A model generated the notes under the pieces. It did no database searches. It was not told the origin of the DNA and saw only the letters and a list, made by a program, of their open reading frames with translations. A program made the translations under genes and the position numbers. From Escherichia phage phiKP26, in sequence record KC579452: a stretch of 47,285 nt of DNA, one strand, 5' to 3'. Positions 1-47,285 of this stretch are shown here, piece by piece; within the stretch, counting starts at the first letter, position 1, and each line of letters begins with the position of its first letter.

Positions 1-65
1 TCGGTTACGCGTATATAAAATAGCACGATTTGCATAGACAACNAAGCCGAAAAATNNCGGGAGCC

Positions 66-446
66 CAAGTTGAAGTAAAATACGGTGTCGNAGTTAGCAG
101 GATTAGCCGCCATGGCTGGAATGGAGTGGTTGGCATTCGATCTCTATACGAGGCAATAGAAAAGGNCCAGCCATTCGTCGGGCGCGAAGGGATTATGCAT
201 GACCTGACAATTAAANNCATCCCANAAATACAAAAGAGGGGAATNGTTTGCCTCATTGGCGATAAGATTTATGTTCATCCGGCCCTGGTTGAGATGGATA
301 AGGACGACGTGCAAAACTGGTGCAGTCAGTGCCGATCCGACGTGCCACGCTCAAACTACGTGCCACCGCAAACAACAATCCATGGCTATAATGCCGATGA
401 GGTGGAGAAGGCCATACAGTTCTACCGGAAAGCGAAAGCTCTCCCG
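66..446. repeat. Direct repeat copy A (assembly overlap / terminal redundancy); near-identical to 46542-46922
   Basis: Base-by-base match to 46542-46922 at offset 46476; differences cluster at N-containing positions. ORF 30-473 is the repeat image of the C-terminal part of CDS 46389-46961. Confidence 0.85.
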
Positions 447-9097: not shown

Positions 9098-10543
9098 ATG
9101 GCTTACACAGAAATTGCTATGGCAGTAGGGAATTCACCTGAAATCTTAGCCAGGANCGTAAAAGTGATGATGTCATCAGGCTTTCAGCCATATGGTGATG
9201 TGCAGATGCTAAGCGGCACCCTCTTTGGCATGAAGATGGCGAAAGGAACAACAAACAACGTTGAAGACTTCATGGTTACATCCGACACCACAATTCAGGG
9301 GCTAGTTAACAGGGTTAACCGATATCTAGCGCAGGGCTGGAAAAGGTTTGGCAATGCTCACTTCGAGGATGGCGCTTATATTTCAGCTCTGGCTAAAGGT
9401 GATTTTGCAAGTGATGAAGNAGGGGGTTCAGGTGAAGCAGGTCCACAAGGTCCGGTTGGTCCGCAGGGTCCAGCAGGTCCCGCAGGCGAAGCTGGTCCGC
9501 AAGGCCCTCAAGGTCCAACTGGTGCAACTGGCCCAGCAGGTGCGGCAGGCGCCAAAGGTGACACTGGTCCGGCAGGCCCTGCAGGCCCGCAAGGTCCTCA
9601 AGGCGAGACTGGAGAAGCTGGTCCACAGGGTCCTATGGGCCCAACAGGTGCAACAGGTCCGGCTGGCCCAAAAGGTGATAAAGGTGATGCAGGTCCAGTT
9701 GGTCCGGCAGGCTTGACATTCCGTGGGGTGTACGACGCAGCGACAGCTTACGTTAAAGATGATGTTGTTACATTCAATAACTCCAGCTGGTTTGCTACCA
9801 CTGCTGTTACCGGAGAGAATCCAGATGTTAGCGATTCCTGGGAATTGCTGGCTGCACAAGGCGCCCCTGGCCCACAAGGAGCAACCGGTCCAGCAGGCCC
9901 GACTGGCCCAGCAGGCCCGGCTGGCATTCAAGGTCCTCAGGGAGAAAGAGGCCTTCAGGGTGAGCAGGGTCCGACAGGTCCGCAAGGCTTGCAAGGTGCA
10001 GCAGGTGCAGTCGGGCCTCAAGGCCCAGCAGGTCCTCAGGGTGAGCCAGGAATACAGGGTCCTGTTGGCCCTCAAGGTCCAATTGGCCCTAAAGGCGATA
10101 AGGGAGACCCGGGAATATCAAGAACCTTCATGAAAGTTAAANCATCGCCTGATGTTGGCACTAATCATATGTTAAGACTACCAGCTCCTCTTAACAACCT
10201 ATCTGTTGGTATAAGGCTTGATTCAACAGTGCTTTTTAGCATTAGAGCCTGGATTGATGAGGGAAGCACTGCCAGGAACATAAGAGGTAATATTGAGGGC
10301 TTCAATAATACAGATAACTACTTCAATACAACAGTAAGGACAGCAATATCTTCATCTTCCGTAACTGGAACAGCATTGGTTACTGGCATTGGTGAATTTC
10401 AAAGAATAAGGCCATATGTTTTTAGCTTTTATGAAACCACAACAGGAACGGCGTGGAGAGTAACAATAAATCTATTTACAGTCGGTTATGTTGTGAGCGA
10501 CAATCAAGACCTGTGTATAGAAGTTGTAAGGCTTGATGCATAA
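9098..10543 (+). CDS. collagen-like repeat protein (two G-X-Y blocks, globular N- and C-terminal domains)
   Basis: 481 aa; two long Gly-X-Y runs ([17 protein letters not shown]...) separated by a ~45-aa non-collagen linker; C-terminal beta-rich domain. Confidence 0.8.
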
Positions 10544-18866: not shown

Positions 18867-18867
18867 A

Positions 18868-18910
18868 TAGCACTAATTGCTAAACAGAAATACCAAGGAA
18901 GGTTTACAAT
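18868..18910 (+). promoter_or_regulatory. palindrome/-10 promoter-like element (tagcactaattgcta-N22-tacaat) inside the tail module
   Basis: Family member directly upstream of the moron-like ORF 18930-19154. Confidence 0.4.
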
Positions 18911-24300: not shown

Positions 24301-24722
24301 GCGCTGGAATGAGCATGGAGTTAACTGGTAGTGGTGGAAATGTTCGTAGTCAGTTTATTTTTGATGCTAACAGGTTCGCAATCAGTAACGGCATTAGTTC
24401 TGGTTCCGGTCAGTGGTCGCTACCTTTCGTTGTGGAGAATAACCAGGTGTTCATTCAGAGCGCGGTGATTCAGGATGGTTCAATTACTAACGCGAAGATT
24501 GGTAACAGGATTCAATCAAACAACTATGTTGCTGGTAGTGCTGGTTGGGCAATTGATAAATCTGGTTTTGCTGAGTTAAGTAACGCTACCGTTCGCGGTA
24601 GTTTGTACGCTAACAATGGTAACTTCGCGTTTAACGGAACCAACAATACTGTCGTAATAAACAATAACGGCATAACTGTTAATTTACCAAATGGAGGTAG
24701 GGTAGTGGTTGGAGTATGGTAA
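21336..24722 (+). CDS. tail tip / host specificity protein (lambda gpJ-like)
   Basis: ~1128 aa; N-terminus MADLPKIYGSKGGSKKPHTPVEQEDNL resembles J-family N-termini; position after the I-like gene. Confidence 0.8.
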   Translation: MADLPKIYGSKGGSKKPHTPVEQEDNLISLNKIKVLLAVADGEVDSSFSLKDVYLADVPVQNQDNSFNYEGVTAEFRSGTQSQDYIAGLDGAASEIQVSREINNDTPYIIAVNNSQLSAIRVKLFWPRLVKQEENGDLNGTTCEYAIDLSVNGSAYTEYIRGVANGKTTTGYDRSIRVNLPAEFSSALVRIRKLTPDSTNSTLVNGMQITTYQEVIDAKFRYPLTALVYVEFSSDLFPNGIPTIAIKKKWKLIRVPTNYNPETRAYSGTWNGTFKMAWSDNPAWVLYDLVVSQRYGLDQRELGVEIDKWGLYEAAQFCDQMVPDGKGGMEPRYTCNVVIQQKVEAYQLIRDICSIFRGLTFYDGEQIGIVVDRPRQPSYVFTNDNVVDGLFNRTFSSDKSLYTTANVQFDDEQNNYQQDVEPVFDLEATRRFGYNPVDLTAIGCVRRSEANRRGRWLLKTNLRSETVTFTTGLEGMIPMIGDVIAVNDQAWSSNYTLNLSGRIVEATGLQVFVPFAIDADPGDRILINKPDGSPEYRTIASVSADKLTLELNTAFSFTPQPDTVFAIDKQNLALQQYVVTGIQKANTDGEDSFQYSITAVQYDPNKYDEIDYGVNIDDRPTSIVDPDRILPPENITVTSYSKVVQGLSVETMVIGYDKVQYAKTYNVQWRKNNGNWINVPETANTEVDIEGIYAGIYDVRVRAVTDQKSVSAWSDITTVSLTGKIGEPSEPPVITASDDEVFGIRVKWGFPTDSADTAYTELQQVPDNGDGTYTPENASLLTLVPYPQYEYWHTTLPAGNVRWYRARIIDRIGNVSPWTDFVRGMASDDVSAIIGDIKVDIENSDGYKYLLQNAIDANTDIQNQAEAIIENALANDTDVRVMTKENLNRKAEYRQAVSLIADETQARVDALTQLKAQIDDEIVGQITTIETALATETEARATADTQLSSRLGDNEAALNQKLDSYATVEGVGVQYGVKLGLKYNGVEYGAGMSMELTGSGGNVRSQFIFDANRFAISNGISSGSGQWSLPFVVENNQVFIQSAVIQDGSITNAKIGNRIQSNNYVAGSAGWAIDKSGFAELSNATVRGSLYANNGNFAFNGTNNTVVINNNGITVNLPNGGRVVVGVW

Positions 24723-24728
24723 ATGATT

Positions 24729-24749
24729 AAGCCCCTTTCGGGGCTTTTN
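24729..24749. terminator. bidirectional terminator between convergent genes
   Basis: aagcccc-tttc-ggggctt hairpin followed by T-run; lies between the J-like stop and the probable stop of the minus-strand gene. Confidence 0.65.
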
Positions 24750-26010: not shown

Positions 26011-26054
26011 AGGCTTCTGCTGTAGTCTTTAGCAAATCGTGCTATTTTATATAC
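26011..26054 (-). promoter_or_regulatory. palindrome/-10 promoter-like element driving the lipoprotein operon
   Basis: Minus-strand reading: tagcacgatttgcta-N23-tatagt-tactccatcgaaacgaaa, then RBS and ATG at 25960. Confidence 0.45.
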
Positions 26055-26520
26055 GCGTAACCGATGTAACTCGATGTATACAATCTCATCCGCTGAAAAT
26101 TGTATACGCTTTTTACGCGAAGATACGCATTAGTTACATTTATAAATCCTTATATAATAAGGGTTTAGAGTATTATTATTATTATATATATTACTATGTA
26201 TATCTTGTAACTACTCTCTATAGCTATGTTGTTGTGTTTTACTAAAATACTATGTTTGATTTCCTGTTAAGGAGAAAATGCATATATATATAGATAGGGT
26301 GCAAATTTGGTGGATACATTGGTTACAAGGGTTACATTCAGCATTCATGCGGCGTACAGAGCATCAAAGCGTATTTATGTGAGTTTTACAGCTATATACA
26401 AAATAGCACGAATAATCAAAAAAAATGATTCCCGATTAATCACAGGGGAGTAAACAACTNAAGCGGTAATACTTGTGATGNATAAATTGGAACACAATTT
26501 ACAGGAATGAAAACANATCC
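26040..26520. promoter_or_regulatory. AT-rich non-coding switch region A (phased ACGC boxes, (TAT)5 tract, divergent promoters); candidate origin
   Basis: ~480 bp without credible ORFs between divergent operons; ACGC boxes at 26105/26116/26125; tattattattattat at 26171-26185; GGTTACA x2 near 26320; palindrome element at its left edge. Confidence 0.5.
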
Positions 26521-27451: not shown

Positions 27452-28420
27452 ATGAGCTTCAAGGTTTACACTAGCGACGAGTTAACCAACGAAGCCTACC
27501 ACAAGGAGTCAGACCATGTGTCTGGCTCTGGTCTGGCTCACATCTTCTCAACTTGCCCCGCTGCTTATAAGTTTGCAGAGCATGATGATAGCAATAAGGC
27601 TTTAAAGTTCGGTACATTAGCCCACACGGTTATTCTTGAAAACTCTGTATTCGATGCGACTTACTATCGCCAGCCAGCGCAAGAAGAGTTTGATGATCTG
27701 ATTACTAGCAAGACTGCTTTGGCAACTCGGTTGAAGTCGATGGGTATTGCTGGAACATCTGGTAAGGATTATCCAGAATTAATGGAGATTCTGGCGCTGA
27801 GCGGTGAATCACTTAACGTATGGTGGGATATTCAGCGCTCTAACGAGGTTAAAGCGAACGGTCGCGAGATTGTATCAGCTAAAGACTTTGACACAGTACA
27901 TGCGATGCGAGAGGTGCTGTGTGGCATTCCTGCATACAATGCGATAGTGAACAGTAAAACCGCTCAGCGAGAGTTATCAATCTTCGGTGAGATTAACGAG
28001 TGCGGCGTTAAGGTTCGTCTTGACCATGTCGATGTCGTTGATGATGTAGTTTATATCCGTGACTACAAGACGACTAGCGACGCATCTCCATCTGGATTTG
28101 GGAGATTGGCCTTCAAGCATGGTTACTTGCTAAAAATGGCGCTTCAGCATGATTTGTTTGTTCGCGCCTTTAATGAGAAGCGTCGAGTTGTTGTTCAGCT
28201 TCTTTGCCAGGAAANGAAAAGCCCATTCCTTCCAATGTGCTACACGATAACAAAAGAGCACTTAAAGGTTGGTAGATTGCAATACATGAGCGCCCTATCC
28301 ACATACAAGCAATGCAAGAAACTTGATATTTGGCCTGGTTACGGATTTGGCGAAACAGAGATGGAACTGCAAGTTCCTGAGTATGAGATGAAGAAGTACG
28401 AAGATAGCACGAATAGCTAA
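27452..28420 (+). CDS. PD-(D/E)xK family exonuclease (recombination exonuclease)
   Basis: 322 aa; D...VVDDVVYIRDYKTT motif characteristic of PD-(D/E)xK nucleases; immediately upstream of Erf. Confidence 0.6.
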   Translation: MSFKVYTSDELTNEAYHKESDHVSGSGLAHIFSTCPAAYKFAEHDDSNKALKFGTLAHTVILENSVFDATYYRQPAQEEFDDLITSKTALATRLKSMGIAGTSGKDYPELMEILALSGESLNVWWDIQRSNEVKANGREIVSAKDFDTVHAMREVLCGIPAYNAIVNSKTAQRELSIFGEINECGVKVRLDHVDVVDDVVYIRDYKTTSDASPSGFGRLAFKHGYLLKMALQHDLFVRAFNEKRRVVVQLLCQEXKSPFLPMCYTITKEHLKVGRLQYMSALSTYKQCKKLDIWPGYGFGETEMELQVPEYEMKKYEDSTNS

Positions 28421-28447
28421 AACGGTATTAAATTGATGGGGTATAGT
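28405..28447 (+). promoter_or_regulatory. palindrome/-10 promoter-like element (imperfect palindrome) upstream of erf
   Basis: tagcacgaatagcta-N22-tatagt-tacctcatcgacaacaaagagag; overlaps the exonuclease stop codon. Confidence 0.4.
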
Positions 28448-29599: not shown

Positions 29600-29608
29600 T
29601 GCAAAAGA

Positions 29609-29632
29609 TAAAGCCCCTTTCGGGGCTTTTTN
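29609..29632. terminator. bidirectional terminator between convergent ssb and tailspike genes
   Basis: aagcccc-tttc-ggggctt hairpin with a T-run on the plus side and an A-run on the other side. Confidence 0.7.
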
Positions 29633-33876: not shown

Positions 33877-33889
33877 TTTCTCACCTCAA

Positions 33890-33932
33890 TAGCACTTTTT
33901 GTTAAACATTGGTTTATATGGCTGTTATTATA
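33890..33932 (+). promoter_or_regulatory. palindrome element in the divergent HTH/helicase intergenic region
   Basis: tagcactttttgtta followed by an AT-rich -10-like tract and leader ...caatcgaacgaaca before the helicase ATG at 33969; the HTH gene starts 14 nt to the left on the other strand. Confidence 0.4.
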
Positions 33933-35912: not shown

Positions 35913-36301
35913 TGGTTAAGGTTTTTCACGACAAAACAAGCACGGACAAGGCTAAAGAGGTTGTTCACCAAATAAATTCAATAGCTTGGGTTCGCCACAA
36001 CCATCCAGAGATATTTGCTTTTCACGTGAAGAATGAAGGTCTCAAGTCTATCGGCACAGCAATGAAGGACAAGCAGGAGGGAGTAATTAAGGGTGTATCA
36101 GATATTCTACTGATTGGACCAAATGGCTTTGCCGCAATAGAGCTTAAGCGAGCAATAAAATCAGATAGCAAGGTTTCAAAGGAGCAAAAGGAGTTCCTGG
36201 AAAAGGTATCAGAAACAGGAGGTTACGCAGCAATCTGTTATGGGTTTGAAATGTTTAAGTTGGCAATTACAGATTATCTATCAAATAGCACGAATTGCTA
36301 A
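35912..36301 (+). CDS. VRR-NUC domain nuclease
   Basis: 129 aa; ...SDILLIGPNGFAAIELKR... resembles the PD-(D/E)xK VRR-NUC core; stop codon lies inside the palindrome element. Confidence 0.55.
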   Translation: MVKVFHDKTSTDKAKEVVHQINSIAWVRHNHPEIFAFHVKNEGLKSIGTAMKDKQEGVIKGVSDILLIGPNGFAAIELKRAIKSDSKVSKEQKEFLEKVSETGGYAAICYGFEMFKLAITDYLSNSTNC

Positions 36302-36328
36302 AGAGATTTCGCAAGGATGCGATATAGT
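36286..36328 (+). promoter_or_regulatory. palindrome/-10 promoter-like element (best consensus copy)
   Basis: tagcacgaattgcta-N22-tatagt-tacttcatcgaaacgaagagag, then ATG at 36360. Confidence 0.45.
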
Positions 36329-36969: not shown

Positions 36970-36970
36970 A

Positions 36971-37013
36971 TAGCACTTTTNGTTAAAACTAAANTACAAG
37001 GATGGATTATATT
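36971..37013 (+). promoter_or_regulatory. palindrome/-10 promoter-like element
   Basis: tagcacttttNgtta-N22-tatatt; upstream of the small ORF at 37043. Confidence 0.4.
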
Positions 37014-37405: not shown

Positions 37406-37659
37406 ATTTACCTGGTCTGGATTTTGATGAGAGTAAGTATCAGGTTGTGTTTTTTGGTGAGAAGCCTTATCGGAAGATTCCTTTCTCTGAGTGGATTCCT
37501 CCGGACTACCTCGATGTACTGGTGCAAATTGAGATTGGTAAGGCTGAGTTGATGTACTACTCACCTGGCTGCAATATGATGATGCCTAGTGAGTATTCTC
37601 CAGCAATTGCTGCGCTTGAAACTGAGTTTCTTGATTACTGGCTAAAAGANGTTAAATAG
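37402..37659 (+). CDS. hypothetical protein
   Basis: 85-aa ORF; ATGA overlap upstream; stop at a palindrome element. Confidence 0.4.
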   Translation: MNLPGLDFDESKYQVVFFGEKPYRKIPFSEWIPPDYLDVLVQIEIGKAELMYYSPGCNMMMPSEYSPAIAALETEFLDYWLKXVK

Positions 37660-37699
37660 CACTTTTNGTTAAAACACATCGCCATGGATGGCGTATAGT
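37657..37699 (+). promoter_or_regulatory. palindrome/-10 promoter-like element
   Basis: tagcacttttNgtta-N22-tatagt-gtgttcatcgaaacgagag; upstream of a 22-aa hydrophobic ORF and the phosphoesterase gene. Confidence 0.4.
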
Positions 37700-39022: not shown

Positions 39023-39214
39023 ATGACTTGCGGAAATATTGAGATGAATTGGTTCAAGAAAGAAATCAAATGGAAAGAAATGTTAAGCATAAAGAGGAAG
39101 GTGGGGATGGGGATAACAGGAGTTATTNATTATAGTGAGTGTTTCAACGACGCGGTATTGGCAAGGANGAAAGCTGAATCTGAATACTCATTTCATGAAA
39201 ATCACGGAAANTAG
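39023..39214 (+). CDS. hypothetical protein
   Basis: 63-aa ORF; Ns within. Confidence 0.3.
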   Translation: MTCGNIEMNWFKKEIKWKEMLSIKRKVGMGITGVIXYSECFNDAVLARXKAESEYSFHENHGX

Positions 39215-39254
39215 CACGAATTGCTAAAACACAAATCAAAAGATGGGGTATATT
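39212..39254 (+). promoter_or_regulatory. palindrome/-10 promoter-like element
   Basis: tagcacgaattgcta-N22-tatatt-tactccatcaaa...; upstream of CDS 39288-39473. Confidence 0.4.
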
Positions 39255-41399: not shown

Positions 41400-42989
41400 T
41401 TACCCCAGCAGCCGTGGATTGATATATACCTTGTCACCAATCAGGCAGGTATAGTTTTTATCATCAAGCATCGGGAGTAAGTGGTCTTTAATTTTAGCCA
41501 TAACACCAGCCTGTGACTCGAAAGGTCGAACCTTACGCGCAGCTTCATAAAGTGAGCGCAAACCCACAACTCCTTTACTGTTCTTGCCTTGCTTGATAAG
41601 GATATCAATTAACTTGTTCATCTCAGCGTTATCGCCAGCATGACCAGCTGCGTTAGCAGAAGATAAGTAAGTCTTGCTAAGTTCTTCAAACATCAATAAA
41701 GCCTCCTGCATCGTTTCCAGTCCAATCTCCCTGGACTTCTGCGGACTACCGCCATTTGGATTAAACCAGTTACGTATGGTGTGAAGAACGGCAGCAAGGC
41801 GAATAACCTGCTTATCCATTTTACCTAGTGCGCCACGGAGCATTGTGTGTGAATACTTGCCGCCATCCGCAAGGTGTGGCTCCATTTCCTGTCGAGCACG
41901 GTTAAGGTGCTTCATTGCTGAGTTACTAATAGTCAACTTCACATCTTGCTCACTCATAATTTCATGAACAAGACGGAAGTAATCAGCCTTCAACGCTCCG
42001 TCAATCGGCTCATATGTTGACTCGCCATTATCATCGACGAAAACACGCTCACCAAGGAATGACTTTTCACGCACAAGCAAGAAACGTTCGGATACACCAA
42101 TACCGCGAGCACCAGCATTCATGATTGCGACTATTGTTTCATCCTGCGCAATTACAGAAATACACCCCATAGCAATAAAGCTCATGTTGTTCTCTGCGTT
42201 CGCACGCGCGATAGATACGTTACCAGCATCCCAGGCCTTAAGTACCAGTTCGCTGTTTGTTTNCTTTGTTCCATCACCATAGGTCATGCCAAGCAGTGAG
42301 TTGACGCTCGTCGCCTCATCCGAGATGACAGCGAAGCTACCCTGACGATGGTTAATGCGTGCCAGACCTTCAGGAGTAGTATCAGATACAGGGAATACGA
42401 TGTCGCAAAGTTTCTCGAGCTTATCTTCCAGCTCCTCCTTCTCCTCAAACAAACCAGCCATCTCAGAAGGCGACTTCTCCTGCTTCATTTCTTTAGCCAG
42501 AGCCGACAGCTTGGCCATAATCTTTTTACGGTCACGCTTACGCAGATCGTTTAGTCGCTCAGTCTCTGCAATCATTGGAGCCAGAGACAGCGAGTTAATG
42601 GCGGATTTACCAGTTGATGGAGGCTGGCTGGTCACTACATACAGTGATGTTGGTTGTTGAGTTCCGTGATACTCAACCGTAAAGCGACCTAACATAGCTG
42701 CCGAGATGCAACCAAGGAAGTGCATATAAGCAGATGATTCAGGAAACTGAACAGAACGAGCAATGTTGCTTGATAGTTTGCCAACTACATCATAGTCGTT
42801 ACCAAGCGAGATAACAGGATACTTGTCGCCAGTAGAATCAATCTCAACCGGAGCTTTCCAGAATGATGCGCTCTGGCGATAACCGTTCGCATTAATAGCA
42901 ACACGTAAAGGAGGTAATCCATCCTGAGCGGCAACAGCCATTACTTGTTCAACAGTCAATTTGTCATCATTAAAATCAAACATTATCAT
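41400..42989 (-). CDS. P-loop NTPase of unknown function (Walker A-like PPSTGKS, Walker B-like AVISDEA)
   Basis: 529 aa; N- and C-terminal segments are paralogous to the short protein at 46389-46961. Confidence 0.5.
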   Translation of the reverse strand: MIMFDFNDDKLTVEQVMAVAAQDGLPPLRVAINANGYRQSASFWKAPVEIDSTGDKYPVISLGNDYDVVGKLSSNIARSVQFPESSAYMHFLGCISAAMLGRFTVEYHGTQQPTSLYVVTSQPPSTGKSAINSLSLAPMIAETERLNDLRKRDRKKIMAKLSALAKEMKQEKSPSEMAGLFEEKEELEDKLEKLCDIVFPVSDTTPEGLARINHRQGSFAVISDEATSVNSLLGMTYGDGTKXTNSELVLKAWDAGNVSIARANAENNMSFIAMGCISVIAQDETIVAIMNAGARGIGVSERFLLVREKSFLGERVFVDDNGESTYEPIDGALKADYFRLVHEIMSEQDVKLTISNSAMKHLNRARQEMEPHLADGGKYSHTMLRGALGKMDKQVIRLAAVLHTIRNWFNPNGGSPQKSREIGLETMQEALLMFEELSKTYLSSANAAGHAGDNAEMNKLIDILIKQGKNSKGVVGLRSLYEAARKVRPFESQAGVMAKIKDHLLPMLDDKNYTCLIGDKVYINPRLLG

Positions 42990-43241: not shown

Positions 43242-43285
43242 AATATATCAATTTTTGTTGTTAAGGTCTTTAGCAAAAAGTGCCA
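43242..43285 (-). promoter_or_regulatory. palindrome/-10 promoter-like element (minus strand)
   Basis: Minus reading: tggcactttttgcta-N23-tatatt-ctcttcatcgaaacgaaa, then a 59-aa ORF starting near 43200. Confidence 0.4.
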
Positions 43286-43439
43286 TTAAAGACCAACCAG
43301 ACATTTGCCAACTACAACAGCGATTGCGCCCATGAAGCCAAAGAANCCAAACTTAATTACTTGTTCCATTACCGCATCAACTGCTTTAGAGATGTTTTTC
43401 ATTTTGTTCACCTTAGTGTTTGTCTTCTTGATGGAAACA

Positions 43440-43483
43440 AATATACCCGCCGAAGCGGGTAGTGTCATTAGCAAAAAGTGCTA
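43440..43483 (-). promoter_or_regulatory. palindrome/-10 promoter-like element with embedded GC hairpin (minus strand)
   Basis: Minus reading: tagcactttttgcta, spacer containing cccgc-ttcg-gcggg, then tatatt; small membrane ORF downstream. Confidence 0.4.
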
Positions 43484-43678
43484 TTAATTAAAACCTTTCG
43501 CCAGATGATAGCTTATTACTAGGCATTTTATCTATGAAAGTTTCAAGCAACCATTTTCTAGTAATGAAATCAACCACGCAAAAATAGCCTCTATCTTTGC
43601 AGTATCTGTACTTAGTGCCGTGTTGTATAGACTTGCAATAAATTGAATCTTTTGTTATGTAAATTCTTACTGTCTCAT

Positions 43679-44394: not shown

Positions 44395-44437
44395 AATATA
44401 CAATAAAAGCCCCGAAGGGCTTTAGCAATTCGTGCTA
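44395..44437 (-). promoter_or_regulatory. palindrome/-10 promoter-like element with embedded terminator hairpin (minus strand)
   Basis: Minus reading: tagcacgaattgcta, spacer aaagccc-ttcg-gggcttt, then tatatt-catctcatcgaaacgaaa; upstream of CDS 44058-44360. Confidence 0.45.
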
Positions 44438-44587
44438 TTNCTTTGCTGCTTTTGCAATTGCCTTCTGGACGATGTTGAAGCTCTCAATCAAATCTTCTTT
44501 GAAGTAGTCACCAACAGGCCAACCCTTACCGCTGTACTTGGCTATGGTTTCTAGATCGTAATAGTTCAAGTCAGATGGCTTTAGCAT

Positions 44588-45228: not shown

Positions 45229-45272
45229 ACTATAGCCTTGCCATCCCCATTTGTCTTTAGCAAAAAGTGCTA
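45229..45272 (-). promoter_or_regulatory. palindrome/-10 promoter-like element (minus strand), first promoter of the leftward operon from region B
   Basis: Minus reading: tagcactttttgcta-N23-tatagt-aaactcatcaacaacgaggag, then ATG at 45201. Confidence 0.45.
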
Positions 45273-45289
45273 TTCGTCAGATTTATGGA

Positions 45290-45870
45290 TTGTTGCAGGC
45301 ATTGCGATGATTAGCATGACTATTACACATAAAGCAATATTTCATCGATTGCAATGATTTTCTGGACTGTTGCGAATTTATCAATGATTGATGGATTGAT
45401 GGAATGAAGTGAGGGTTGTATCAACTAGTTGGTTGGTTTTAGCTTTCACAAGGAGCTTTCCTTTATGTACGCGTTATGGCTTGTTCAACCGTGTAGAGAA
45501 ATTGCCATATTTACGCCATCCACGCCAGTTTACGCGCTGGTTACAAANTAAATCCCTTATATAACAACCATTTAGATTTATTATTATTATTATTATTATA
45601 TATGTTATTCCGTAACCATGATTATCTGAGATATTGGTGATATTTTTTGATATTGCGCGGCGCATAAAGATTTAGATAAAGAGATAGGGATGCAAGCGGG
45701 GTGGCGAAAATGGCTTAACATACCATAACGGCAATAACAGCCTTGATACGACTAGCGTCAGCATGTAACAATTTAGCATAACGTGCGATTACCGAGTTGA
45801 ACGTGTAAATAACGCTTGCGACATTCACCAATCATGGTAAGATGCTCTCACACCAAACGAGAGGAGTAGT
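45290..45870. promoter_or_regulatory. AT-rich non-coding switch region B, paralogous to 26040-26520 (phased ACGC boxes, (TTA)6 tract); candidate origin
   Basis: ACGC boxes at 45513/45522/45532; ttattattattattattat at 45578-45596 with flanks similar to 26141-26215; tandem gattgatgg x2 near 45390; no credible ORF. Confidence 0.5.
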
Positions 45871-46389: not shown

Positions 46390-46961
46390 TGTTTGATTTC
46401 AACGAGGATAAGTTAACTGATGACCAGGTGATGGAAGTCGCCAGGCAAGATAACCTGCCGCCACTTCGTGTGGCAATCAGTACTAATGGATACCGCCAAT
46501 CATTCAATTTCTGGCCCAGCGCCGAAGAGATGCTGTGCGTCAAGTTGAGCTACAAATACGGTGTCGTAGTTAGCAGGATTAGCCGCCATGGCTGGAATGG
46601 AGTGGTTGGCATTCGATCTCTATACGAGGCAATNCGAAATGTCCAGCCATTCGTCGGGCGCGAAGGGATTATGCATGACCTGACAATTAACATCATCCCA
46701 GAACTACAAGAGNCGGGAATTGTTNGCCTCATTGGCGATAAGATTTATGTTCATCCGGCCCTGGTTGAGATGGATAAGGACGACGTGCAAAACTGGTGCA
46801 GTCAGTGCCGATCCGACGTGCCACGCTCAAACTACGTGCCACCGCAAACAACAATCCATGGCTATAATGCCGATGAGGTGGAGAAGGCCATACAGTTCTA
46901 CCGGAAAGCGAAAGCTCTCCGAAAGGGGAAATTTAAAAAAAATGAACCATCTATCAATTAA
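46389..46961 (+). CDS. short paralogue of the 529-aa P-loop protein, lacking the ATPase core; 3' end runs into low-quality sequence
   Basis: N-terminus MFDFNEDKLTDDQVMEVARQDNLPPLRVAISTNGYRQS matches the N-terminus of 41400-42989; a later block (VVGIRSLYEA...LIGDKIYVHPAL) matches its C-terminus. In the cleaner repeat copy the ORF ends at 473. Confidence 0.5.
   Translation: MFDFNEDKLTDDQVMEVARQDNLPPLRVAISTNGYRQSFNFWPSAEEMLCVKLSYKYGVVVSRISRHGWNGVVGIRSLYEAXRNVQPFVGREGIMHDLTINIIPELQEXGIVXLIGDKIYVHPALVEMDKDDVQNWCSQCRSDVPRSNYVPPQTTIHGYNADEVEKAIQFYRKAKALRKGKFKKNEPSIN
46542..46922. repeat. Direct repeat copy B (matches 66-446)
   Basis: Same as copy A; after 46922 the sequence degrades instead of continuing as 447 onward. 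Confidence 0.85.
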
Positions 46962-47285
46962 AAAAAATAAGTNANNAACCCCCACCACCAAAAAAACCAN
47001 NAACACANNNANAAATAACAACAAATAACAACCAAAAACCCANNNAAAAACANCAACACAACANCACNAANAANNCNCCACANAANAAAGGACAAATAAC
47101 ANNAGGATGCGAAGANACGNAGNNNNGCNNNNAGTANNCTNCGCAANNNNNGACAGGCNNNGGTGGACCCTCGTCACCGTAACACTTACAGGTACGCACG
47201 GACGGTAACGGTCGGACGAGGCAGGGTACGTACGGTCGGTAGGGACGGCGGGTACCTAGGTAGGGGTACTTTCGGAACGGTAACG
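46923..47285. other. Low-quality / artefactual sequence tail (N-rich, A/C homopolymer-rich)
   Basis: Dense Ns, poly-A and poly-C runs, no coherent reading frame; the ORFs predicted here are full of X. Confidence 0.8.

Follow-up and report, generated by a model that had tools for sequence, protein, structure and literature searches.

The 47,285-nt stretch of Escherichia phage phiKP26 analysed here (record KC579452; the whole stretch is called the window below) carries two copies, ~19 kb apart and in the same orientation, of a non-coding module in which short, helically phased boxes surround an AT-rich core with a TAT tract. One copy lies in region A (26040-26520) and the other in region B (45290-45870). 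Comparison with related phages suggests that the two modules could be two replication origins of the type that combines iterons with a DNA-unwinding element (DUE), a tentative reading to which we attach somewhat less than even confidence. For T1-like phages the replication origin has been reported as not found (PMC11447400, PMC7718038). The accessible literature contains no description of the module and no transcription start site or origin data for the Drexlerviridae; the original genome papers on T1 (2004) and Rtp (2006) were not covered, so a prior mention is possible.

Two copies of one module

By megablast, both regions match Rogunavirus phages (Drexlerviridae, T1-like), Escherichia phage C119 being the closest at 99.4-99.8% identity, and the gene order of the window is that of C119, T1 and Rtp. 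A first-pass annotation had described regions A and B as long stretches free of open reading frames (ORFs), placed where transcription diverges and sharing a near-identical segment, and our analysis agrees with it on all three counts. The regions are two of the three divergent strand switches of the genome and correspond to the two largest gaps between coding sequences in the C119 annotation (471 and 672 nt); the third gap, of 414 nt, contains a tRNA. Their local alignment, which covers ~90 nt from the third box to TGTAAC, scores 59, far above the 22.8 ± 2.9 (maximum 34) of 300 dinucleotide shuffles, and is thus well beyond chance similarity. The pattern ACGC-N4-7-ACGC-N4-7-ACGC occurs twice in 47 kb when both strands are searched, where 0.06 occurrences are expected and none of 100 shuffles gave two or more; across the whole window three phased ACGC boxes are found only at 26106-26128 and 45513-45535, and (TAT)n runs with n of at least 4 only at 26171-26185 and 45579-45599. 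According to nearest-neighbour energies, no other duplex in the genome is as unstable as these two TAT tracts at window sizes of 30, 50 and 100 bp (z = 4.3-4.8, compared with at most 3.2 for any further non-overlapping segment outside regions A and B), in keeping with the earlier expectation that the tracts would melt easily. The hexamer GTTACA is also concentrated here, with 7 of its 34 occurrences in the window falling within the two regions against 0.73 expected, an enrichment of ~10-fold.

The module is larger than the first-pass annotation described, with ~300-400 bp per copy and a core of ~110 bp. Its anatomy was derived from an alignment of 30 non-identical copies from relatives together with the mapping of box orientation. 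The order is an ACGCGT palindrome, three TACGC boxes and then GTTACA, spaced 9-10 bp, an IHF-like site, a (TAT)5-8 tract, inverted TGTATA/TGTAAC boxes and three further phased boxes. The elements of the two copies in the window are as follows.

Copy A, left arm: 26052-26081, + strand; palindromic TACGCGTA at 26052-26059, overlapped and then followed by three reverse-oriented boxes
Copy A, reverse boxes of the left arm: GTAAC 26057-26061, GTAAC 26066-26070 and GTATAC 26076-26081, spaced 9-10 bp
Copy A, forward array: 26105-26138, + strand; TACGC 26105-26109, 26114-26118 and 26124-26128, GTTACA 26133-26138
Copy A, IHF-like site: 26155-26167, + strand; TAATAAGGGTTTA, two mismatches to WATCAANNNNTTR
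Copy A, (TAT)5 tract: 26171-26185, + strand; centre of the genome's least stable 30-100 bp, candidate DUE
Copy A, inverted boxes: 26197-26211, + strand; TGTATA 26197-26202, TGTAAC 26206-26211
Copy A, downstream forward array: 26313-26336, + strand; GATACA 26313, GTTACA 26322 and GTTACA 26331, spacing 9 and 9
Copy B, left box: 45468-45474, + strand; TACGCGT, containing the ACGCGT palindrome
Copy B, forward array: 45512-45545, + strand; TACGC 45512-45516, CACGC 45521-45525, TACGC 45531-45535, GTTACA 45540-45545
Copy B, IHF-like site: 45562-45574, + strand; TAACAACCATTTA, one mismatch to the consensus, overlapping a -35-like TTTAGA at 45571-45576
Copy B, (TAT)7 tract: 45579-45599, + strand; least stable 30- and 50-bp segment of the genome
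Copy B, inverted box: 45611-45616, + strand; CGTAAC, 71 bp after the start of GTTACA
Copy B, weaker and tentative downstream array: 45715-45739, + strand; TTAACA, ATAACG and ATAACA, spacing 10 and 9, low conservation

In both copies the forward array has start-to-start spacings of 9, 10 and 9 bp, GTTACA being the fourth phased box of copy A. The ACGC boxes one helical turn apart that had been reported earlier are therefore present, with their starts in region A corrected to 26106, 26115 and 26125 and those of region B spanning 45513-45535. Likewise, the two GGTTACA of region A (26321-26327 and 26330-26336) are real and belong to the phased downstream array, which in relatives reads GATATACACGATATACACGATGGTTACA. 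The repeat tract had been given as (TAT)5 in region A, which stands, and as (TTA)6 in region B, where we find (TAT)7 instead. In copy A, ~25 nt separate the left arm from the forward array, the IHF-like site overlaps a -35-like TTTAGA (26164-26169), GTTACA and TGTAAC are 73 bp apart from start to start, and ~100 nt of variable sequence precede the downstream array.

Conservation among Drexlerviridae

Searched with a hidden Markov model (HMM) of the core, this window, C119, Msk, Rtp, 12397V, TH27 and TH30, seven genomes that are complete or nearly so and that cover Rogunavirinae, Braunvirinae and Nouzillyvirus, have exactly two strong matches each (E = 1e-23 to 1e-36). The two copies keep the same order and orientation in these genomes, and the layout includes T1, which is too diverged for the core HMM but whose two best weak matches fall exactly in its two homologous gaps. 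The T1 gaps follow the same plan (ATTACGCC twice, TA-rich tracts, then reverse TGTAAC/TGTATA boxes and GATTAACAC three times at a 10-bp period) and hold 9 of the 24 genomic occurrences of GTTACA/TGTAAC, against 0.40 expected (p about 5e-10). To judge from these sequences, possession of two module copies is a family trait. BLAST found the core in more than 100 phage records, all of them coliphage-type relatives of T1; plasmids and E. coli genomes gave no match, and hence no hint that the module has been taken up by a satellite or plasmid. Protein-anchored retrieval from IMG/VR yielded only four loci each; a scan for the DNA pattern performed better, chance matches in AT-rich DNA being removed with nhmmer.

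Among the 30 copies, 50 of the 111 columns of the core (26101-26211) are invariant and mean pairwise identity is 0.74-0.98, as opposed to a single invariant column out of 209 and identities of 0.44-0.50 in the flanks. Within the module, invariant columns amount to 13 of 15 in the TAT tract, 15 of 38 in the forward array and 9 of 37 in the left arm (mean pairwise identity 0.67), and the IHF-like position of the core is a perfect TATCAACCTTTTA in 16 copies. The tract consists of five TAT units in 18 copies, six in 2, seven in 7, eight in 2 and four in 1, while GTTACA and the facing TGTAAC/TGTATA stay 71-75 bp apart in all 30, longer TAT runs being compensated by a shorter TA-rich sequence after the tract. 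Since this distance is constant while the number of units runs from 4 to 8, the tract does not behave as a free-running or contingency microsatellite, a possibility that we reject: the unit number is type-specific, and the length polymorphism among isolates that the first-pass annotation had proposed to look for turns out to be compensated rather than hypervariable. Compensation of this kind implies a geometric constraint spanning the tract, with selection on the spacing between binding sites as well as on the tract sequence itself.

These patterns bear on the simplest alternative, namely that the module has no specific function and that the similarity is a remnant of duplication or gene conversion between AT-rich intergenic regions, homogenised by the phage RecE/Erf proteins. 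Some copy-specific variants are indeed common to both copies of one genome, which suggests exchange between copies or phages. However, drift or homogenisation would have to account for two copies whose order and orientation are unchanged across seven complete genomes of several lineages, including the T1 layout, for conservation that is position-specific (50 invariant columns in the core against one in the flanks) with compensated spacing, and for an architecture that recurs with different boxes in distant relatives. We regard a lack of function as the least credible of the explanations considered here.

As an example of such variants, AAATCC(C)TTATATAA is present in both copies of this window, where both copies of other genera have AATATCTATATATA. 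In Nouzillyvirus TH27 (locus L012, 163-302, aligned with window 45508-45644), copy B is the Rogunavirus-type variant AAATCCCTTATATAACAACC and copy A the variant of the other genera. This suggests, at the level of sequence, that modules or their neighbourhoods have been exchanged between genera, and the conserved cores could have served as recombination joints.

A protein-coding gene across the core was rejected. The frame, start and end of the ORFs differ among copies, and the regions are not filled by conserved small genes, a situation that had been named beforehand as one that would speak against a control or origin function. A 34-codon ORF (MHIYIDRVQIWWIHWLQGLHSAFMRRTEHQSVFM; 26278-26382, + strand) does follow a strong Shine-Dalgarno sequence, AAGGAG (26269-26274), and shares sequence with the downstream box array. 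Several Rogunavirus A copies have this ORF and other genera lack it; it may be a small gene peculiar to that lineage, or the boxes may create it incidentally. Nor did Rfam, run over the whole window at the gathering threshold, place any family at the module, its sole match being a tRNA at 2921-2993.

Distant relatives and a candidate binding protein

Three further loci (L081, L082 and L083) were reached through helicase homologues of 37-54% identity. In all three, the 50 bp of lowest stability in the locus (z = 4.4-5.5) fall within the divergent gap adjoining the helicase operon; this unstable DNA is rich in AAT, TAT or TA runs, and short repeats flank it in direct and inverted orientation. 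The boxes are different in each case.

L081 boxes: GGGGAAG/CTTCCCC, plus GGGTTA
L083 boxes: TTTCGCC(C)/GGGCGAA
L082 boxes: GGTAACA three times at a 10-bp period, with one inverted copy

The constant neighbour of these module-like gaps is the replication gene cluster, with the helicase gene immediately adjacent. Because the architecture is kept while the recognition sequence is specific to each lineage, the comparison points to boxes that would be read by a co-evolving phage-encoded protein rather than by a host factor. The genome encodes a zinc-ribbon primase, an SF2 helicase, a Cro-like helix-turn-helix protein and a 529-aa DUF3987 protein, the last being the candidate trans-acting partner.

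41403-42989, - strand: DUF3987 (SF6, MCM-like) replicative helicase, 529 aa, Pfam E = 3.4e-42

Its gene belongs to the leftward operon that starts at copy B. DUF3987 proteins have been described as MCM-related helicases with a winged helix-turn-helix at the C-terminus (PMC4889955). In agreement with this, all 50 of the 50 matches listed by Foldseek against the PDB are MCM or MCM-containing replisome entries, and the AlphaFold2 model (predicted local distance difference test score, pLDDT, 89.2) has a helix-strand-helix-helix-strand-strand unit at residues ~453-523, a C-terminal domain that the model presents as winged-helix-like. We propose this predicted domain as a candidate reader of the boxes. 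The small proteins of the helicase operon had no match in Pfam. The first gene to the right of copy A (26507/26521-27180, + strand) encodes a Rha-like protein (Pfam Phage_pRha, E = 2.5e-9; anti-repressor in the C119 annotation). This gene is absent at the same position in T1, where recE directly follows the gap, and in Rtp, where a 133-aa hypothetical protein (rtp46) precedes recE, and its product is therefore unlikely to be a conserved box-binding protein.

A bolder version of the origin reading can be drawn from the same candidate. The modules would be T1-family origins read directly by the MCM-like (SF6/DUF3987) helicase through its winged-helix domain, which would recognise pentanucleotides set out in facing arrays; two hexamers would load head-to-head round the 73-bp core, and (TAT/TAA)n would be the first strand captured, at 3 nt per AAA+ subunit. 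We consider this specific scheme improbable. If true, it would be a self-loading MCM-type origin, independent of the origin recognition complex, in a bacterial virus and in duplicate.

A model of the module as an origin

The preferred reading, that of two iteron/DUE-type origins, builds on the iteron-like architecture already recognised in the first-pass annotation. Phased boxes next to a melting AT tract, in two paralogous copies, were confirmed and are now strengthened comparatively by the presence of two copies per genome, by the fixed spacing of the core and by box arrays on both sides in opposite orientation; as for an initiator, no recognisable family (Rep, lambda O, DnaA-box cluster) was found. 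Both copies have at least three phased tandem direct repeats, as expected of an iteron origin, although the repeats are atypical in being only 5-6 bp long, and an adjacent AT-rich element of low stability stands out genome-wide here and in the three distant relatives.

On this reading each region would be one origin-type assembly site, of ~300-400 bp, for a protein-DNA complex. A phage-encoded DNA-binding protein would read short TTAC(G/A)-type boxes (TACGC, GTTACA, TATACA), which are arranged in phased head-to-tail rows, one helical turn apart, and face each other across the fixed AT core of ~73 bp. Within the core, an IHF-type bend site would precede (TAT)5-8, the least stable DNA of the genome. 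Occupancy of the box arrays could open the TAT tract and allow entry of helicase and primase, and opening may be assisted by IHF bending and by negative supercoiling between two flanking promoters that fire outward. The ACGCGT palindromes at the border, beside these outward promoters, could link transcription to whether the module is occupied, as inverted half-iterons do in iteron plasmids. The two modules may be two origins, or an origin and its cis-acting partner site.

Several observations weigh against the origin reading. The boxes, at 5-6 bp, are far shorter than classical iterons of 17-22 bp, and no initiator of the Rep, O or RepA type was found by Pfam among 18 window proteins. When helicase identity is compared domain by domain with box type, the winged-helix domain is not singled out as co-varying. 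Conservation is poor in the downstream arrays and at the right border (identity 0.45-0.50). In the window the IHF site is degenerate, with two mismatches in copy A and one in copy B, and a consensus scan showed no overall enrichment of IHF-like matches. There is no DnaA-box cluster, and neither conserved core has a match to TTWTNCACA with up to one mismatch; such matches number 65 genome-wide against 107 expected, and a DnaA-dependent, oriC-like origin was rejected for lack of a cluster. Finally, lineage-specific boxes would suit the operators of a phage regulator equally well, and every copy offers a sigma-70-like TTTAnn-N17/18-TAT(A/T)(T/A)T pair over the tract.

Promoters and the 21-nt repeat of T1-like phages

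The last two points lead to the main alternative, an early-transcription hub. In this case the AT core would be a promoter of the host RNA polymerase (with TTTAnn as a -35-like element, the TAT tract as spacer and -10, and UP-like AT-rich DNA upstream) or a pair of back-to-back promoters, and the boxes would be operators through which a phage regulator switches both early regions together. Its assessment depends in part on another conserved non-coding repeat of T1-like phages. The 21-nt repeat aaATAGCACnnnTTGnTAAAA has been described for TLS, T1, Rtp and Rogue1, and its function is listed as an open question (PMC11447400). In the window, ATAGCACnnnTTGnTAAA has 24 matches with up to three mismatches, against 6.6 expected, and the repeat is found at the outer edges of both regions.

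Clear copies (up to two mismatches): 457-474, 1573-1590, 18867-18884, 28404-28421, 33889-33906, 36285-36302, 36970-36987, 37656-37673, 39211-39228
Clear copies, - strand: 43269-43286, 43467-43484, 44421-44438
Left of the copy A core: 26028-26045, - strand; ATAGCACGATTTGCTAAA, no mismatch, facing the leftward lipoprotein gene, outside the shared core
Left of the copy B core: 45256-45273, - strand; facing the leftward operon with the DUF3987 helicase gene, outside the shared core
Right of the copy A core: 26403-26420, + strand; three mismatches
Right of the copy B core: 45772-45789, - strand; two mismatches

The copies listed as clear, together with the two left of the cores, are all oriented with transcription. 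The repeat contains a dyad, TAGCA-N5-TGCTA, which in the longer D3 repeat family is fixed 22 nt upstream of a TAnnnT -10-like hexamer, with no -35 element placeable at 17 bp; the dyad centre, near -41.5, has the geometry of a class II activator site. The repeat thus looks like an activator-dependent promoter motif, and its dyad symmetry would make it a more natural target of the Cro-like protein than the boxes are. Identity of the module with this repeat was rejected: the shared core has no match to it, the repeats lie outside the core, and they differ from the module in sequence, in number (~17 occurrences), in their position ~76 nt upstream of start codons and in their symmetry. The two-copy module is a separate element lying between 21-nt repeats.

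If the 21-nt repeat is activator-dependent, some promoter independent of phage proteins must exist, and the AT cores are candidate early promoters, since neither region contains a sigma-70 promoter that matches at 10 or more of 12 positions. On the + strand, every copy allows a 9/12 match with a spacer of 17-18 bp, in the window at 26164-26192 (TTTAGA-17-TATATT) and 45571-45599 (TTTAGA-17-TATTAT); there is also a minus-strand candidate, at a place where the AHP24 and ETEP102 records annotate a predicted promoter. Both copies are located at divergent junctions that head early or DNA-metabolism operons, and their lineage-specific boxes would fit a phage-encoded regulator. On the other hand, in region A sigma-70 matches do not exceed chance for such AT-rich DNA (2 where 3.9 are expected), region B having 8 where 3.7 are expected, and the -35-like hexamer varies (TTTAGA, TTTACT, TTTAGT, TTTATC) and overlaps the IHF-like core. 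Promoter spacers normally vary freely, yet 13 of the 15 tract columns are invariant, and what is conserved is how far apart the facing boxes on either side lie, not a promoter-internal distance alone. In addition, the genes flanking the module already have proximal promoter motifs, the 21-nt repeats, which point outward on both sides, and the genes to the left and right of the two copies have no functional class in common. On balance we find an early-transcription hub rather unlikely, although it is the strongest of the rivals. The origin and promoter readings are not mutually exclusive, and the origins of T4 and T7 combine a promoter with an unwinding region.

The probable packaging region beside copy B

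Region B contains, to the left of the module, a segment with no counterpart in region A.

B-only segment: 45280-45431, no strand assigned; GATTG-type repeats GATTGTTGC, GATTGCAATGATT and GATTGATGGATTGATGG (45386-45402), and a perfect IHF consensus TATCAACTAGTTG at 45419-45431

The two gattgatgg that the first-pass annotation listed for region B are present, but they belong to this segment, at what corresponds to the start of the T1 record, and not to the shared module. Similar motifs surround coordinate 1 of the T1 record, which is the start of its 2.8-kb terminal repeat, and the GenBank records of T1 and many relatives begin ~190 nt left of the B boxes. The packaging site (pac) of T1-like phages has been placed in the untranslated region that holds copy B (PMC7718038). 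The B-only segment is probably the pac region, a placement that rests on record conventions and not on end mapping in phiKP26.

It could then be asked whether the module itself is the terminase recognition site, a pac of the P1 or SPP1 type with box rows around a cleavage zone and an IHF site. The P1 pac has 4 + 3 hexamers plus IHF, and SPP1 has pacL, pacC and pacR; the box rows, the IHF-like site and the central zone of the module bear some resemblance to both. Copy B does lie within the untranslated region in question, with the starts of T1 and many other records ~190 nt to its left. Those starts, however, fall outside the module, in the B-only segment, which has GATTG repeats and a perfect IHF site of its own; copy A lies 19 kb off, flanked by lipoprotein and recombination genes, where no genome end has been reported; and in distant relatives the equivalent module adjoins the helicase operon. 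We consider a packaging signal very unlikely, and as a function shared by both copies pac was rejected on the position of copy A and on the record starts outside the module.

Comparison with known systems

If the modules are origins, their closest relatives in design would be the iteron origins of plasmids and lambdoid phages (ori-lambda, pSC101, R6K, P1/F), in which helically phased iterons of 17-22 bp lie beside an AT-rich unwinding region, with an IHF-type bending site. The module shares the phased direct repeats, the AT-rich tract and an IHF-like site between them, and the inverted box within TACGCGTA, beside a promoter, resembles by analogy the operator half-iterons of iteron plasmids. 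It departs from them in its boxes of 5-6 bp at a 9-10 bp period, in the arrays on both sides in opposite orientation, in its two copies per genome, and in that neither an initiator of their families nor DnaA boxes were found for it.

In the origins of staphylococcal pathogenicity islands (SaPI), SV40 and papillomaviruses, two sets of 5-8 bp boxes flank an AT-rich melting region, and the initiator is the replicative helicase, equipped with an origin-binding domain. Two box sets around a melting tract and an MCM-like helicase of the phage itself, with a winged-helix-like C-terminal domain, are comparable features here; the differences are an SF6/DUF3987 instead of an SF3 helicase, box binding that is hypothetical, and the setting of a virulent 46-kb siphovirus. 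SPP1 (oriL/oriR) and P4 (ori and crr) have two distant, related cis elements with repeated boxes, AT-rich as well in SPP1, that are bound by one phage replication protein, and two related and widely separated modules in one phage genome are suggestive of the same arrangement. No homologue of G38P of SPP1 was found, and similarity to the P4 alpha protein is limited to the primase zinc ribbon. The left half of E. coli oriC consists of the DUE, DnaA box R1, an IHF site and an array of DnaA boxes, with trinucleotide DnaA-trio elements. There too an IHF site stands between box array and unwinding element, such that a bend could bring array-bound protein to the melted strand, and the 3-nt periodicity of the tract, (TAA)n on the bottom strand, recalls the DnaA-trio; in contrast to oriC, the module has no DnaA-box cluster and its boxes are specific to phage lineages.

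T1 belongs to the seven classical T phages and is notorious for contaminating laboratories and fermentations. The analysis yields two precise, conserved candidate sites of ~110 bp, together with a motif for the boxes, a rule for the spacing across the AT core (71-75 bp) and a candidate for the protein that binds there. As origins, the modules would belong to the iteron-plus-DUE kind, their unusual features being boxes of five nucleotides, an unwinding tract made of a trinucleotide repeat, the duplication and the MCM-like helicase, and their confirmation would show how such a phage helicase finds its origin. As early-promoter hubs, they would define how immediate-early expression is controlled in T1-like phages. 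Both outcomes would be useful for engineering or blocking these phages.

Gene order and other features of the window

The strand blocks of the genome are, in order, a long rightward block for packaging and structure; a leftward block with the genes for the lipoprotein and membrane proteins; a rightward block for the Rha-like protein, RecE, Erf and SSB; a leftward block for the tail fibre, the primase and the Cro-like regulator; a rightward block from the SF2 helicase through the lysis genes; a leftward block that includes the DUF3987 helicase; and rightward small early genes. Copy A thus has the lipoprotein gene on one side and the recombination genes on the other. Near-identical GC hairpins followed by T runs (AAGCCCCTTTCGGGGCTTTT) stand at both convergent junctions, 24721-24748 and 29603-29630, and are probably bidirectional terminators; the AHP24 record annotates terminators at the first of them.

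The unit genome is ~46.5 kb, and the window contains 149 Ns, 53 of them in its last tenth. Bases 1-33 are the reverse complement of 26030-26062, at the left border of region A, bases 78-445 duplicate 46554-46920, and the final ~325 bases (46960-47285) are N-rich, of low complexity or otherwise odd. The ends of the window (1-77; 78-445 against 46554-46920; 46960-47285) look like assembly artefacts. Elsewhere, at 9428-10089, ~20 overlapping copies of a 9-nt-periodic repeat of the GGT-CCN type encode collagen-like Gly-X-Y within a 481-aa ORF (9098-10543), which is a tail fibre protein in the C119 annotation; GPVGP repeats were reportedly noted in its homologue in the Rogue1 paper.

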